Positions 45,805-50,702 of a DNA stretch of 64,000 nucleotides are shown here, in pieces. How positions within the stretch are numbered: the stretch's first letter is position 1; each line of letters starts with the position of its first letter. The stretch lies in assembly GCF_027532945.1 (NCBI RefSeq), contig NZ_JAPZTZ010000030.1, forward strand, positions 9,199 to 73,198, written 5' to 3'. Below the pieces are notes generated by a model. That model was not told the DNA's origin, ran no database searches, and saw only the letters and a list, made by a program, of their open reading frames with translations. The translations under genes were made by a program, and so were the position numbers. Origin of the DNA: Phreatobacter sp. GTDB taxonomy: Bacteria > Pseudomonadota > Alphaproteobacteria > Rhizobiales > Phreatobacteraceae.

Positions 45805-46539
45805 TCACTCGCCCTCGCCGCGCGCACGCGATTCGGCGATCAGCCGGTTCGTCGCCGCCTCGATGTCGGCCTCGAGCTTCGCGGAGAACTCCGCCGGCGG
45901 CAGGCCGGGCGGGATCGGGTCGAGAAACTCCACCAGCACCGTACCGGGTCGGCGGGTGAAGGCCTTGCGGCTCCAGAACATGCCGGAATTGAGCGCCACC
46001 GGCTGGCAGGGCAGGCCGAGCGCCCGGTAGAGATGGGTCACGCCGAACTTGTAGTCGGGCGGCGCGTCGACAGCCCGGCGCGTGCCCTCGGGAAAGATCA
46101 TCACCTGTCGGCCGATCGCCGCGGCGCGCTTGGCGCCCACCGTGATGGAGGCGAGCGCCTCGCCCTTGCGGCCGCGGTCCACCGGAATCTGCTTCGCCTT
46201 CCAGATGAGCCAGCCGAACAGCGGCACATAGGCGAGCTGGCGCTTGTAGACATAGGCCGGGCGCCGGAACGGAAGGAAGAAGGCGAAGGTCTCCCAGGCC
46301 GACTGGTGCTTCGCCGCAACCAGGATCGGTCCGTCCGGAATCTTCTCCATGCCACGCCATTCGACCTTGAGGCCGCAGATCACCCGGAGCGCCCAGAGAT
46401 TGCCGCGGCCCCAGACCAGGCCGATAAAGAGAATGGGCCTGTCGCTCGGCCAGGCGAGCGCCGGGAGGATGATGATCATCAGGAACAACGTCCAGAGATA
46501 GAAGAAGACGTTGAACAGGAGGGAACGCAGGTGGAGCAT
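45805..46539 (-). CDS. plsC: 1-acyl-sn-glycerol-3-phosphate acyltransferase
   Basis: KHQSAWET, YKRQL, IFPEGTR, PVALNSG. Start refined to 46539. Confidence 0.85.
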   Translation of the reverse strand: MLHLRSLLFNVFFYLWTLFLMIIILPALAWPSDRPILFIGLVWGRGNLWALRVICGLKVEWRGMEKIPDGPILVAAKHQSAWETFAFFLPFRRPAYVYKRQLAYVPLFGWLIWKAKQIPVDRGRKGEALASITVGAKRAAAIGRQVMIFPEGTRRAVDAPPDYKFGVTHLYRALGLPCQPVALNSGMFWSRKAFTRRPGTVLVEFLDPIPPGLPPAEFSAKLEADIEAATNRLIAESRARGEGE

Positions 46540-46565
46540 CGGGCGGGTCCTCGCCGCCCGGTGGA

Positions 46566-47315
46566 TCAGCTCCGGGCGGTGCGCAGTCTCTGCTGCGCGG
46601 GGTCGGCTGTGGCGCGGTCGAGGCGGAGCCCGACCGCGGCCATCAGGTATTTGGCATATTCGAAGCCGAGAATCTTCACGCTCGCCGCGTCTTTCCACCA
46701 GCCGTCCGGGTGGAGCACCCCGGTCTGCACGGGGAAGGCCACCAGCCGGACCCCCGGCATGAGCTGCTGCAGCTCCAGCATGGTGCGCGGCATGTGATAG
46801 CCGGAGGTCACCACGAGCAGCGAGCGGAAGGCGTGGAGCCGCACCCATTTCGCCGTCTCGATGGCATTGCCGCGGGTGTTGAGCGCCCGGTGGTCGAGAT
46901 CGATGCAGCAGCCGAGGAAGGCGGTCGCGGCCGGCACCGCGCGGGAGAGTTCGCGCTCACCGACCATGGGATTGACGCCGCTGATGAGGAGCCGCCGGCC
47001 ATGGCCGGTGCCGAGCAGCGTCACCGCGTCGCTGACTCGCGAGGCGCCGCCGGTCAGCGCCACGATGGCCTCGGTGCGCGGGCTCGACGGGTCATAGGGG
47101 CGGGTGGCGCTCTCGGCGAAGGCGATGAAGCCACCGAGGAGGCCGGCGGCGAGAGAGGCGGCAATCGCGGGCAACAGGAAGCGCGGGCGCAGGAGGCGAC
47201 GCAGCGCCGGGACCCGGCCGGAGCGATCATCCGCCCGGGGAGCACCCGTCTCGGGGCCGGGCAGGTTCCGGCCTGTCGCGCTGTCCATGCGCAGGGTCGT
47301 CATGGAAAAGATCAT
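46566..47315 (-). CDS. YdcF/DUF218 family protein
   Basis: TM segment, AIVALTGG, LLISG, ALNTRGNA.ET, LLVVTSGYHMPR, EYAKY. Exact start uncertain. Confidence 0.85.
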   Translation of the reverse strand: MIFSMTTLRMDSATGRNLPGPETGAPRADDRSGRVPALRRLLRPRFLLPAIAASLAAGLLGGFIAFAESATRPYDPSSPRTEAIVALTGGASRVSDAVTLLGTGHGRRLLISGVNPMVGERELSRAVPAATAFLGCCIDLDHRALNTRGNAIETAKWVRLHAFRSLLVVTSGYHMPRTMLELQQLMPGVRLVAFPVQTGVLHPDGWWKDAASVKILGFEYAKYLMAAVGLRLDRATADPAQQRLRTARS

Positions 47316-47475
47316 AGCGCCGAATGCGGCAATCCAAAGTCCCCTTCGTGATGGCCTGCCACGCTTCCTGCCGAAGGCTTAAGCGTGTCTTTCGCAGCCC
47401 GCTGCCTCCCCCTTCGGCCGGATTGACTTGGCCGACGGCCCGCCGAAGTCTGGCGGCCCGATCCGGAGACCCCCG

Positions 47476-48450
47476 ATGCGCGCCGTCCTGTGCAAGGCCT
47501 ATGGCCCCCCCGAGAGCCTCGTCGTCGAGGAGCTGCCCGATCCGGTGCCCGGCCCCGGCGAGGCCGTCGTCGCCGTCACGGCCGTGGGCCTCAACTTCTT
47601 CGACAACCTGATCATCAAGAACATGTACCAGGTGAAGCCCGAGCTGCCCTTCTCGCCGGGCTCGGAATTCGCCGGCCGGATCGCCGCTCTCGGCGAAGGT
47701 GTCACCGGCCTCAAGGTCGGCGACCGTGTCCTCGGCAACGTGCCGCATGGCGCCGCCCGCACCCATGTCGTGGCGAAGGCCAAGACCCTCGCCCCCATTC
47801 CCGACGGCCTCTCCGACGAGCAGGCGGCCGGCATGATCATCACCTATGGCACGACGATCCACGCGCTGAAGGACCGCGCCCAGCTGAAGCCCGGCGAGAC
47901 GCTGGCCGTCCTCGGCGCGGCCGGCGGCGTCGGCCTCGCGGCGATCGAGCTCGGCAAGGCCATGGGCGCGAGGGTCATCGCCTGCGCCTCCTCCGACGAC
48001 AAGCTCGCCTTCTGCCGCGAGCATGGCGCCGACGAGGTGCTGAACTACGCCACCCACGATCTCAAGGAAGGCCTGCGCGCCCTGACCGGCGGCAAGGGGC
48101 CGGACGTCATCTATGACCCCGTGGGCGACAAGCTCGCCGAGCCGGCCCTGCGCGCCATTGCCTGGGAGGGCCGCTTCCTCGTCATCGGCTTCGCCGGCGG
48201 CGAGATCCCGAAGATCCCGCTGAACCTCACCCTGCTGAAGGGCTGCGACATCCGCGGCGTGTTCTGGGGCGCCTTCGCCCAGAAGGAGCCGGAGAAGAAC
48301 CGGCAGAACCTCATCCAGGTGGCGAAATGGACGGCGGAGGGCAAGCTGTCCCTCCATGTCCACGGCACCTATCCGCTGGAGAAGATCGCCGAGGCTCTGA
48401 ATGTGCTGACCAGCCGCCAGGCCCGCGGCAAGGTCATCCTCAAGCCCTGA
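47476..48450 (+). CDS. NADPH:quinone oxidoreductase family (MDR) protein
   Basis: PFSPGSEFAG, LGAAGGVGLAA, DVIYDPVG, GRFLVIGFAGG, GKVIL. Start refined to 47476. Confidence 0.92.
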   Translation: MRAVLCKAYGPPESLVVEELPDPVPGPGEAVVAVTAVGLNFFDNLIIKNMYQVKPELPFSPGSEFAGRIAALGEGVTGLKVGDRVLGNVPHGAARTHVVAKAKTLAPIPDGLSDEQAAGMIITYGTTIHALKDRAQLKPGETLAVLGAAGGVGLAAIELGKAMGARVIACASSDDKLAFCREHGADEVLNYATHDLKEGLRALTGGKGPDVIYDPVGDKLAEPALRAIAWEGRFLVIGFAGGEIPKIPLNLTLLKGCDIRGVFWGAFAQKEPEKNRQNLIQVAKWTAEGKLSLHVHGTYPLEKIAEALNVLTSRQARGKVILKP

Positions 48451-48459
48451 GCGGCCGGA

Positions 48460-48837
48460 TCAGACGGCGTCCGCCACGAGGACGGGCGCGCGGCTGACGA
48501 GGTCGGCCTCGACCGCGGCGCGGGCCTCGGCGCTCTCGGCGATGAGGTGGACGTGGACCTCCTCGGCCCGCTTCATCTGGGCGAGGCGGGCGAGCGCTGC
48601 CGGGGAAGCCGGCGAGCGCCCGGCCCAAAGCGCCACGCGCGTGCCGTCCGCCTCGCGACGGGCGAGCACCACGATGGCGCCGGGATAGGCCGGCGGCGCA
48701 GCGACATCATGAACGGTGACGAGGTAGCGGCGCCCGGAGGCGCCGCGCCAGGCGTGGAAGCGGGAGGCGAGCCCGGCCGCGGCGAGGGCGGCGGGCGTGC
48801 CGGCGTCGAAAGCATGGATCATCTGGCGGTTCGTCAT
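48460..48837 (-). CDS. Hypothetical protein, probable SOS gene, degenerate GIY-YIG-like
   Basis: 125 aa; WRGASGRRY, PAYPGAIVVL, LWAGRS, EVHVH; ATG 2 nt downstream of a LexA box. Confidence 0.7.
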   Translation of the reverse strand: MTNRQMIHAFDAGTPAALAAAGLASRFHAWRGASGRRYLVTVHDVAAPPAYPGAIVVLARREADGTRVALWAGRSPASPAALARLAQMKRAEEVHVHLIAESAEARAAVEADLVSRAPVLVADAV

Positions 48838-48839
48838 GA

Positions 48840-48854
48840 GAACATAATGCGAAC
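48840..48854 (-). promoter_or_regulatory. Alphaproteobacterial LexA (SOS) box
   Basis: GTTC-GCATTAT-GTTC (plus strand GAAC-N7-GAAC), an exact match to the consensus. Confidence 0.85.
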
Positions 48855-48873
48855 AGACCGGCGTCACGGTCAA
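48844..48873 (-). promoter_or_regulatory. sigma70 promoter overlapping the LexA box
   Basis: TTGACC-N18-CATTAT; 6 nt separate the -10 from the A of ATG. Confidence 0.65.
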
Positions 48874-48932
48874 GCGCGGAGTGATGCCCAGCGGCCCTCC
48901 TGCTGCCAGCGTTCTGGCAGGAGCCTTCGTCC

Positions 48933-50702
48933 TCAGTGTCCCGCGGCGAGCGTTCCCCGTTGCCGGCTGTCGGATGCCGCGGCCCAGCCGCCCGGCACGG
49001 CCAGGATGGCGTTGACATTGCCGAAGGCCGGTCGCGGCGTAATCTGGTGGCCGCGGGCGGCCAGCAGCCGCAGCGTATCGACCGAAATCCCCTGCTCGAC
49101 GTCGATGGCGTCCGGCATCCACTGGTGATGGATGCGCGGAGCCGCCACCGCCTCGGCGATGTTCATGCCGTGGTCGACCACGTTGAGGATGGTCTGCAGC
49201 GTGATGGTGATGATGCGGCTCCCCCCCGGCGAGCCCGTCACCATCGCCACCTTGCCATCGCGGAACAGGATGGTCGGCGTCATCGACGAGAGCGGCCGCT
49301 TGCCCGGCCCCGGCAGGTTGGCCGCGCCCTGGACCAGGCCGAAGGCGTTCACCGCCCCGGCCTTGGCGGCAAAATCGTCCATCTCGTTGTTGAGGAGGAT
49401 GCCGGTGCCCTCGGCGACGAGGCCGAGGCCGTAGGAGAAGTTCAGCGTGTAGGTGTTGGAGACCGCATTGCCGAAGCGGTCGACCACCGAGAAATGCGTG
49501 GTCTGCTCGCCCTCATGCGGTGCCGGGTCGCCGGCGCGGATAGCTGTGGAGGGCCGCGCACGCTCGGGATCGATGAGAGCGCGAAGCGTCGTCGCATAGG
49601 CCTTGGAGGTCAGGCCGCGCACGGGGATGCGGACGCTGTCGGGGTCGCCGAGAAACTGCGCCCGGTCGGCATAGGCAAGCTTCATCGCCTCCACCATCCA
49701 GTGGATCGTCTCGGCGCTGTTCTGGCCCCTGGCGCCGAGGTCGAGCGGCTCGAGCATGTTGAGCATCTGCACCAGATGGACGCCGCCTGAGGAGGGCGGC
49801 GGCATGGAGGCGAGTGTCCAGCCCTTGTAGGAGCCGCGCACCACCTCGCGGATGACCGGCCGGTAGCTGCGAAAATCCTCCGTCGTCATGATGCCGCCGT
49901 GCTGGGCGAGCGCCGCGACGATGCGGGCCGCCGTCGCGCTCTCGTAGAAGCCGGCCGGGCCCTGCTGGGCGATTGCCTCCAGCGAGCGGGCGAGATCCTC
50001 CTGCACCAGCCGCTCGCCGGGCGCGGGCGCCGAACCATCGGCCTTCAGGAAGATGCGCCGCGAGGAGGGGAAGCGGCCGAGCCGCGCCGCGGCGCGCGGC
50101 AGGGAATCGGCGAGGTCCTCGTCGACGACGATGCCGTCGCGGGCGAGGCGGATGGCCGGGGCGATGAGTTCGGCGAGCGAGAAGCGGCCGGAGCCCCAAC
50201 GCCGGTGCGCCTCGGCGAGGCCTGCCACCGTGCCGGGCACGCCGGCGGCCAGCCCCGAATCGCGGGAGAGGCGCGGGTCCGGTTCGCCATTGGGGCCGAG
50301 GAACATGGTCGGTGTCGCGGCGGCGGGCGCCGTCTCGCGATAGTCGATGGCAACCGTCTCGCCCCGCTCGGCGAGATGGACCAGCATGAAGCCGCCGCCG
50401 CCGAGATTGCCGGCGCGCGGCAGCGTCACCGCCAGGGCGAAGCCCACCGCCACCGCCGCATCAACCGCATTGCCGCCCTGGCGGAGCACCTCGACCCCGA
50501 CGCGCGTCGCCCGCGCCTCCTGGCTCGCCACCATGCCGTTGGCGGCCGTCGCGGGATGGACGCGCGCGCCCTCGGAGATGATGGGCCAGCCCTGCGCAGC
50601 AGAGGGAGAGGCCTGCGCGGCGGCGGGAGGCGGCGTCTGTGCCGTCGCGGGCTGAATGGCGAGGGCGGCGACCACCGCCACCATCCGGAACATCTGTCGC
50701 AT
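48933..50702 (-). CDS. ggt: Gamma-glutamyltransferase
   Basis: Signal peptide, GGNAVDAAVA, IDYRETAP, PPPSSGG, autocleavage site QTTHFSVVD, LNNEMDDF, RPLSSMTP, GSPGGSRI. Start refined to 50702. Confidence 0.95.
   Translation of the reverse strand: MRQMFRMVAVVAALAIQPATAQTPPPAAAQASPSAAQGWPIISEGARVHPATAANGMVASQEARATRVGVEVLRQGGNAVDAAVAVGFALAVTLPRAGNLGGGGFMLVHLAERGETVAIDYRETAPAAATPTMFLGPNGEPDPRLSRDSGLAAGVPGTVAGLAEAHRRWGSGRFSLAELIAPAIRLARDGIVVDEDLADSLPRAAARLGRFPSSRRIFLKADGSAPAPGERLVQEDLARSLEAIAQQGPAGFYESATAARIVAALAQHGGIMTTEDFRSYRPVIREVVRGSYKGWTLASMPPPSSGGVHLVQMLNMLEPLDLGARGQNSAETIHWMVEAMKLAYADRAQFLGDPDSVRIPVRGLTSKAYATTLRALIDPERARPSTAIRAGDPAPHEGEQTTHFSVVDRFGNAVSNTYTLNFSYGLGLVAEGTGILLNNEMDDFAAKAGAVNAFGLVQGAANLPGPGKRPLSSMTPTILFRDGKVAMVTGSPGGSRIITITLQTILNVVDHGMNIAEAVAAPRIHHQWMPDAIDVEQGISVDTLRLLAARGHQITPRPAFGNVNAILAVPGGWAAASDSRQRGTLAAGH

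Follow-up and report, generated by a model that had tools for sequence, protein, structure and literature searches.

A putative LexA operator merged with a predicted leaderless promoter ahead of a probable GIY-YIG-derived gene in Phreatobacter

The 64,000-nucleotide (nt) stretch of Phreatobacter sp. DNA analyzed here (contig NZ_JAPZTZ010000030.1, positions 9,199 to 73,198; hereafter the window) carries on its minus strand a short gene for a 125-amino acid (aa) protein, P0001, whose start codon is immediately preceded by the direct repeat GTTC-N7-GTTC. Direct repeats of this form are the LexA operator of alphaproteobacteria (PMC3323433; PMC12700426). The locus therefore raises two questions, namely whether the gene belongs to the SOS regulon and, if it does, what kind of protein it encodes. 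A preliminary description had proposed that the gene is leaderless, LexA-controlled and uncharacterized, with a degenerate GIY-YIG-like core. We consider it probable (roughly 0.6) that this is a directly LexA-repressed SOS gene with a leaderless mRNA, encoding a GIY-YIG-derived protein that binds or processes nucleic acids without classical GIY-YIG chemistry.

Putative operator and promoter of the gene

The minus strand of the region reads cgcTTGACCgtgacgccggtctGTTCGCATTATGTTCtcATGacg (over a longer distance, cgcTTGACCgtgacgccggtctGTTCGCATTATGTTCtcATGacgaaccgc), and the exact box, GTTCGCATTATGTTC, which ends 2 nt 5' of the ATG, is the sole exact GTTC-N7-GTTC in the window. A consensus scan detected a single sigma-70-like promoter, TTGACC-18-CATTAT (48873 to 48844), where shuffles of the 1.4-kilobase (kb) region lead to an expectation of 0.0. 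The -10 hexamer sits within the operator spacer, such that box and -10 overlap, and the six bases 5' of the ATG are GTTCTC, without a purine-rich Shine-Dalgarno sequence. The arrangement first read from this strand, with TTGACC-N18-CATTAT, the box over the -10 and 2 nt before the ATG, and no Shine-Dalgarno sequence, is therefore confirmed. Every close relative shares the first ATG as its conserved start, and Met6 shows no such conservation. A longer open reading frame (ORF) of 220 aa, starting from a GTG at 49122, was rejected because homologues begin at the ATG that follows the box.

Elsewhere in the same genome, for which 4.13 megabases (Mb) in 35 contigs were scanned, GTTC-N7-GTTC boxes with an A/T-rich spacer are not randomly placed and are located directly 5' of the genes for LexA (TIGR00498; two boxes), RecA, the divergent uvrA/ssb pair, ImuA and the DNA polymerase III alpha subunit (dnaE). 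Boxes are also found 5' of a TIGR03916 "DNA modification/repair" radical-SAM protein and a PA0069-type radical-SAM protein, the identities of the boxed genes having been confirmed by NCBIfam. These boxes and those of the three genes named next lie, in genome G000 outside the window, at C22:78080, C15:43908/43934, C11:192223, C11:48526/48557, C30:61287, C13:12648, C9:19306, C17:42542, C21:25878 and C6:33940, and those with a T-rich spacer are predicted to make up its LexA regulon. Three more boxed genes encode an RNase T2-like protein, an unknown 178-aa protein and an unknown 66-aa protein, all of which are, by their boxes, further candidate SOS genes. In addition, the imuA box (C30:61287) ends 4 nt before the imuA ATG, and imuA may likewise be leaderless here.

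The box is also retained with the gene. Among relatives from Phreatobacter and Methyloceanibacter, an exact box is found 5' of the gene at 78 of 80 genomic loci, and the other two lack upstream sequence. In an order-wide sample, an exact box on the same strand and no more than 300 nt from the conserved WRG motif is present at 41 of 70 loci, as compared to 6 boxes per 211 kb (0.0085 per 300 nt) in the remainder of those loci. The nominal binomial P for this difference is ~5e-66, a value that overstates independence, given that the loci are phylogenetically related. The geometry of box and promoter is not the same throughout. In Methylobacterium homologues the box is in the opposite orientation, immediately 3' of their own TTGACG-N-TAAGAT promoter, and in Methyloceanibacter it lies ~72-113 nt (mostly 83-92 nt) 5' of the ATG. 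Retention of the half-sites despite these differing promoter geometries argues against the repeat being mere promoter sequence. The proposal of LexA control is thus strengthened by conservation of the box upstream of orthologues across the order and by occurrence of the same motif at lexA, recA, uvrA/ssb and imuA.

Alignment of the promoters gives a more precise picture of the layout. With the box as the anchor, no gaps are needed to align 32 distinct promoters drawn from 13 family-level groups of the order; their consensus is TTGAC(c/g)-N12/13-GTTC-TA.TTT-GTTC-(tc)-ATG-AAC-AAA, and in nearly all of them an in-frame ATG lies exactly 2 nt past the box (1 nt in two). If the A of the ATG is taken as +1, the box extends from -17 to -3 and its spacer places TAnnTT at -13 to -8 (a TAnnnT -10), with TTGAC 17 nt further 5'. 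In Phreatobacter the spacer is a variant, GCATTAT or TCATAAT, that yields a -10 of CATTAT or CATAAT. The consensus spacing is ideal sigma-70 geometry for a transcript that starts at the start codon, with a repressor sitting over both the -10 and the start. Because the operator spacer doubles as the -10, transcription should begin at the start codon. The leaderless character proposed for the gene is accordingly well matched by a box-NN-ATG spacing and upstream TTGAC that are kept in all 13 groups, the start itself being deduced from geometry. Methyloceanibacter and Methylobacterium homologues are present in RNA libraries, in contigs whose ends define no start and for which DNA carry-over is possible.

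The same direct-repeat operator lies over the core promoter of alphaproteobacterial SOS genes, including recA, lexA, uvrA and imuA of Caulobacter, Rhodobacter and Rhizobium (PMC3323433; PMC12700426). Unlike at those promoters, the -10 is here formed by the operator spacer itself, and 2 nt separate the end of the operator from a predicted leaderless start, an arrangement that is fixed across the 13 family-level groups. We regard the gene as a well-defined predicted SOS-regulon member that is, as far as found, new to the literature, with a known kind of operator in an unusually tight leaderless layout.

Two further repeats were seen around the start codon. In Phreatobacter relatives (L003-L012) a second, inverted box, GAAC-N7-GAAC (ATGAACAAAGGCCGAAC), lies in the first six codons, 4 nt past the promoter box; it is missing from the window copy of the gene. 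Many other families begin ATG-AAC-AAA, creating GTTC-N4-GAAC over the start codon.

The protein family and its ancestry

Database searches assign no identity to the protein. Searches with P0001 of Pfam, NCBIfam and PDB sequences returned chance matches only (FliK, FlgF, PliG and VRR-NUC, at E>0.04), the 69 family representatives had no credible match in Pfam (a lone AMP-binding_C at E=0.008), and the family profile detected only universal stress proteins among PDB sequences (E=1.2). PHROGs and PADLOC contained nothing for the family. A profile search of 1.84 billion cluster representatives identified 1215 relatives at E<=1e-3, including 770 at E<=1e-10, and every named member is called "hypothetical protein". 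A description of the family was not found in the literature, and the gene is, as far as found, absent from the SOS regulons described there. It is thus indeed uncharacterized.

The link to GIY-YIG nucleases was reached through a sister family, A4, composed of stand-alone proteins of ~107 aa that were first met as a few matches from outside the order (L085-L087). Its members are L085-L087 and L190-L194, with proteins in the range P0212-P0331 (for example P0241, P0242 and P0303). The A4 consensus, WxGKSGKxY...GNYIFAK...PIYIGQTxxLSERFDxHH...GATHIHAH...RLxEExDLIxxxxPxCN, contains every residue of the GIY-YIG catalytic set (Tyr, Tyr, Arg, His, Glu and Asn). NCBI lists some of the A4 proteins as "GIY-YIG nuclease family protein", and members have sub-threshold matches to PF01541 (E=0.0027) and to UvrC, Cho, group I intron endonuclease (TIGR01453) and phage homing-endonuclease models. 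Profile-profile alignment with hhalign connects our family (A2) to A4 (98.7 %, E=3.9e-16, 105 columns) and A4 to canonical GIY-YIG proteins (88 %, E=3.2e-6, 83 columns, in the correct register). On the strength of these two links, descent of the family from GIY-YIG nucleases is supported, though only transitively through A4. The A4 genes occur in variable genomic contexts and in other taxa, and no LexA box was found at the four A4 loci examined.

The alignment agrees with what had been read from the sequence by eye, as residues A54-S75 of P0001 pair with the UvrC strands GIY...YIG, and do so in the register of the preliminary description. The UvrC N-terminal GIY-YIG domain (PF01541), encoded at 43.4-45.8 kb of the window, shares the same strand-strand-helix...strand-helix order and alignment register. 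Unlike UvrC, P0001 has its catalytic residues replaced and has no UvrC C-terminal half. Support for a degenerate GIY-YIG core comes from transitive profile homology, and not from a direct Pfam or significant fold match.

An AlphaFold2 model of P0001 (predicted local distance difference test, pLDDT, 91; predicted template modeling score, pTM, 0.83) contains an N-terminal beta-hairpin at residues 27-44, a second hairpin at 55-74, a helix at 79-88, a strand at 93-97 and a helix at 103-113. When this model was compared to PDB with Foldseek, the top match, and the only one with a non-trivial probability, was 2lwf (E=0.43, probability 0.77, template modeling score, TM, 0.38). This structure is the N-terminal domain of the plant glutaredoxin AtGRXS16 and is treated in the literature as a GIY-YIG endonuclease domain. 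The structural comparison thus names the expected fold at its top match, at an E-value and TM that fall short of significance, and a second model gave no such match.

The family has lost most of the classical active site, as residue counts over 69 diverse members indicate. At the GIY-Tyr position the family has V, L, Y or F (Tyr in 13 members), and P0001 has V56. At the YIG-Tyr position A, F, W or R is found and Tyr is never among the six commonest residues, with W71 in P0001. Both catalytic Tyr are accordingly missing from P0001, as had been noted. The catalytic Glu is present in 19 of 69, including P0001 (E110), and the Asn motif (P-x-C-N in A4) is gone altogether, since the family protein ends before it. 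R84 is a candidate for the helix-1 Arg, the helix alignment being ambiguous.

What is conserved instead is a different set of residues: F27, W30, R31, G32, S34, G35, R36, R37 and Y38, in the loop of the N-terminal hairpin, followed by R67, E93-x-H95-x-H97, A100, R106 and D112. Within the WRGxSGRRY signature, G32 and G35 are invariant (69/69), and S34 (68/69), W30 (67/69), R37 (64/69) and Y38 (62/69) are nearly so; within ExHxH the counts are 66/69 for E93 and 67/69 for each of H95 and H97. A4 resembles the family in its WxGxSGKxY N-terminal hairpin, its HxH strand and the R...D-L of its last helix, and differs in keeping both catalytic Tyr (of GIY and of YIG) along with Arg, His, Glu and Asn. 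Given that hairpin and HxH strand are common to both families, they predate the loss of the classical residues.

Cho (YdjQ of Escherichia coli), a LexA-regulated UvrC-like nuclease, likewise combines SOS control with a GIY-YIG-type domain. It is ~290 aa in length, has an intact catalytic set and works with UvrAB. Unlike Cho, P0001 is a single domain of 125 aa that lacks both Tyr and the Asn and has the extra N-terminal hairpin. It is without a UvrC-type C-terminal region and has no match to NCBIfam UvrC or Cho models.

Weighing the proposed function

Under the preferred reading, the -10 of a sigma-70-type promoter (TTGACC, 17-18 nt, CATTAT) would be embedded in the spacer of a LexA operator of the form GTTC-N7-GTTC. 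LexA bound there as a dimer would cover both the -10 and the start site and so exclude RNA polymerase, until DNA damage and the RecA-stimulated self-cleavage of LexA free a strong, compact promoter. Transcription would start on or beside the A of the ATG, and the mRNA would be translated at once without a Shine-Dalgarno sequence. The predicted product is a cytoplasmic single-domain protein of a family in which the canonical Tyr, Tyr and Asn have disappeared and the Glu mostly has too; it would bind or process damaged DNA or repair intermediates by something other than classical GIY-YIG chemistry. The preliminary description had the protein as probably nuclease-dead, and as one that binds DNA or modulates repair or division; both statements are inference.

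Several observations weigh against this reading. Genome-wide, the bare motif is at chance level, with 73 exact matches versus ~70 expected from base composition, and in the window it is insignificant alone, at least one match being found in 58 of 100 window shuffles. Support for a LexA site is therefore comparative, coming from the boxes of the same genome and from footprinting. The spacer in the window, GCATTAT, is less T-rich than the spacers at canonical SOS genes. Furthermore, no box lies within 500 nt in a "long-type" clade made up of ~11 family-level groups of the order, and LexA control therefore does not extend to the whole family. Among sequencing runs, the window was found in DNA metagenomes only, with no RNA runs; damage induction, LexA binding and the transcription start are thus inferred, as is the biochemical activity. 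With respect to the fold, neither P0001 nor any of the 69 family members matches PF01541, and direct hhalign comparison of the family with UvrC N-termini and small GIY-YIG proteins of related genomes was not significant (P=0.06), for which reason the route through A4 was taken. Foldseek E-values were 0.4 or worse, with no match at E<=0.001 for two models against PDB and one against BFVD; the second model, of a Methyloceanibacter member (pLDDT 76), had no GIY-YIG match, and the BFVD search had none. Finally, the strongly conserved E-H-H-D residues could signify an active enzyme rather than a binding protein.

This last point leads to an alternative that is possible but doubtful, in which regulation is unchanged but the product would be a catalytically active nuclease or phosphoesterase that depends on metal. 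Its rebuilt site would consist of E93, H95, H97 and D112 together with the Arg/Ser hairpin, making it a damage-induced DNA cutter like Cho or BapE. Conservation of the four acidic and His residues in 66-69 of 69 members is what such an enzyme would call for, and the ExHxH motif on one strand places three metal ligands on one face. A4 keeps the HxH strand together with a full GIY-YIG catalytic set, and P0001 retains the Glu equivalent. However, the protein is without the Tyr that serves as general base, without the second Tyr and without the Asn, the Glu is kept only by a minority of members, and no known nuclease family matched P0001 or its family by sequence or fold searches. BapE, an SOS-induced Caulobacter endonuclease, is, in the account given by PMC12700426 (citing Bos et al. 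2012), also an effector that is lineage-restricted, under LexA control and proposed to act on DNA, a likeness that is one of analogy only.

Less can be said for an SOS-induced protein that does not act on DNA at all, an improbable alternative in which the fold would be a protein-binding scaffold and the product a checkpoint protein or regulator, such as a division inhibitor, a factor that modulates RecA, LexA or ImuABC, or a toxin that arrests growth. SOS regulons often hold small lineage-specific effectors, among them SulA, SidA and DinI, and erosion of the catalytic residues would be compatible with a role of this kind. No SidA or SulA family was noticed, and none was searched for. However, the gene has no membrane segment or partner gene and is monocistronic amid housekeeping genes, and the Arg-rich hairpin and His/Glu/Asp set resemble a ligand or metal site more than a protein interface.

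It is very improbable that GTTC-N7-GTTC is simply part of a conserved constitutive promoter of a gene that LexA does not regulate, because, although the motif is at chance frequency, its spacer coincides with a -10 that would be conserved anyway and one orthologue clade lacks the box, the GTTC half-sites are not sigma-70 elements and yet do not vary at 41 of 70 loci whose flanks diverge, the box is retained in Methyloceanibacter and Methylobacterium at other positions and in the other orientation relative to the ATG, and the same motif marks lexA, recA, uvrA and imuA in this genome.

A bolder reading of a LexA-repressed, GIY-YIG-derived protein can also be formulated, although it is speculative and on balance unlikely. 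The gene would be an order-wide, vertically inherited SOS effector in which the GIY-YIG scaffold has been rebuilt with an ExHxH/Asp metal center and an Arg/Ser phosphate-binding hairpin for a new damage-specific reaction on DNA or nucleotides, such as lesion processing or end cleaning. Operator, -10 and start site would form one leaderless switch that permits immediate translation upon LexA cleavage.

Genomic setting and significance

The features of the locus are collected in Table 1.

Table 1. Features of the gene and its upstream region, with positions in window coordinates
Feature	Position	Strand	Basis and remarks
-35 hexamer TTGACC	48868..48873	-	Consensus scan; TTGAC 12-13 nt 5' of the box in 32 orthologous promoters
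Putative LexA operator GTTCGCATTATGTTC, direct repeat GTTC-N7-GTTC	48840..48854	-	Motif and conservation; about -17 to -3 if A of ATG = +1
-10 hexamer CATTAT	48844..48849	-	In operator spacer; other families have TAnnTT(T) at the equivalent place, a TAnnnT -10
Start codon ATG and predicted transcription start (leaderless)	48835..48837	-	2 nt past the box, 6-7 nt past the -10; start deduced from geometry
Coding sequence, 125 aa + stop, uncharacterized family (P0001)	48460..48837	-	ORF call, homologues, AlphaFold2 model (pLDDT 91)
Codons 30-38, WRGASGRRY, family signature in N-terminal beta-hairpin loop	48724..48750	-	Conservation in 69 members; A4 has WxGKSGKxY
Codons 54-113, putative GIY-YIG-derived core, strand-strand-helix-strand-helix	48499..48678	-	hhalign chain via A4; secondary structure from AlphaFold2 model
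Codons 93-97, E-V-H-V-H, ExHxH strand, candidate metal site	48547..48561	-	Conservation in 69 members; A4 has TH-I-H there

Upstream, a same-strand gamma-glutamyltranspeptidase gene stops at 48933, leaving an intergenic region of 95 nt, and 3' of the gene a convergent quinone oxidoreductase gene (47428-48450, plus strand) ends at 48450. An operon partner was considered and rejected, the gene being monocistronic and convergent with quinone oxidoreductase here and with chaC elsewhere. A search of Rfam over 47800-49400 gave sub-threshold chance matches only.

In general the gene has a stable chromosomal address beside ftsE-ftsX-DUF218-plsC and convergent with chaC. In the window it is instead placed upstream of DUF218-plsC, and so across from its usual side, with the quinone oxidoreductase gene inserted, a local rearrangement specific to Phreatobacter. 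The block in which the gene follows ftsE-ftsX-DUF218-plsC is conserved, the comparison having covered 45805-47315 (minus strand) of the window and loci L053 and L186-L189. The preliminary description had also pointed to uvrC, ~3 kb away. That proximity is conserved within Phreatobacter, as genus-level synteny only and with no functional weight, and a functional link to uvrC was rejected because the gene and uvrC are on different contigs in other families.

Within the order of the window (Hyphomicrobiales/Rhizobiales-like) the family was found, nearly always as a single copy, in 91 of 149 genera and 233 of 401 genomes. A sampling of 401 genomes from across the class gave it in only 8. Among the named hosts are Phreatobacter, Methyloceanibacter, Methylobacterium, Labrys, Rhodoligotrophos, Tepidamorphus, Lutibaculum, Taklimakanibacter and Roseiarcus. 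As judged from gene order and occurrence, this stable neighborhood and distribution are typical of an old core gene inherited vertically and not of a mobile one.

Orthologues without the box, as in the long-type clade, share another conserved upstream motif, GCCACATTTC-N4-GAAA(T), which is partly palindromic and located ~100 nt before the ATG (loci L101-L118, L122, L127, L128, L136, L155 and L156; also L053:2905-2920). A sequence resembling it is present in the 5' leader of the Methyloceanibacter gene. The motif could be the site for another regulator or a leader element.

SOS regulons beyond those of E. coli and Caulobacter still contain conserved genes without a known role, and the gene described here occurs once per genome in most genera of an order that is very large and of ecological and agricultural importance. 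For a gene that is unannotated everywhere, there is now a concrete regulatory model, in which LexA is predicted to act, and a structural ancestry, which points to the GIY-YIG nucleases. The arrangement GTTC-TAnnTTT-GTTC-NN-ATG would represent a clean natural case of a repressor operator fused to a -10 and a leaderless start, and may be useful both for understanding the timing of the SOS response and as a compact damage-inducible expression element.
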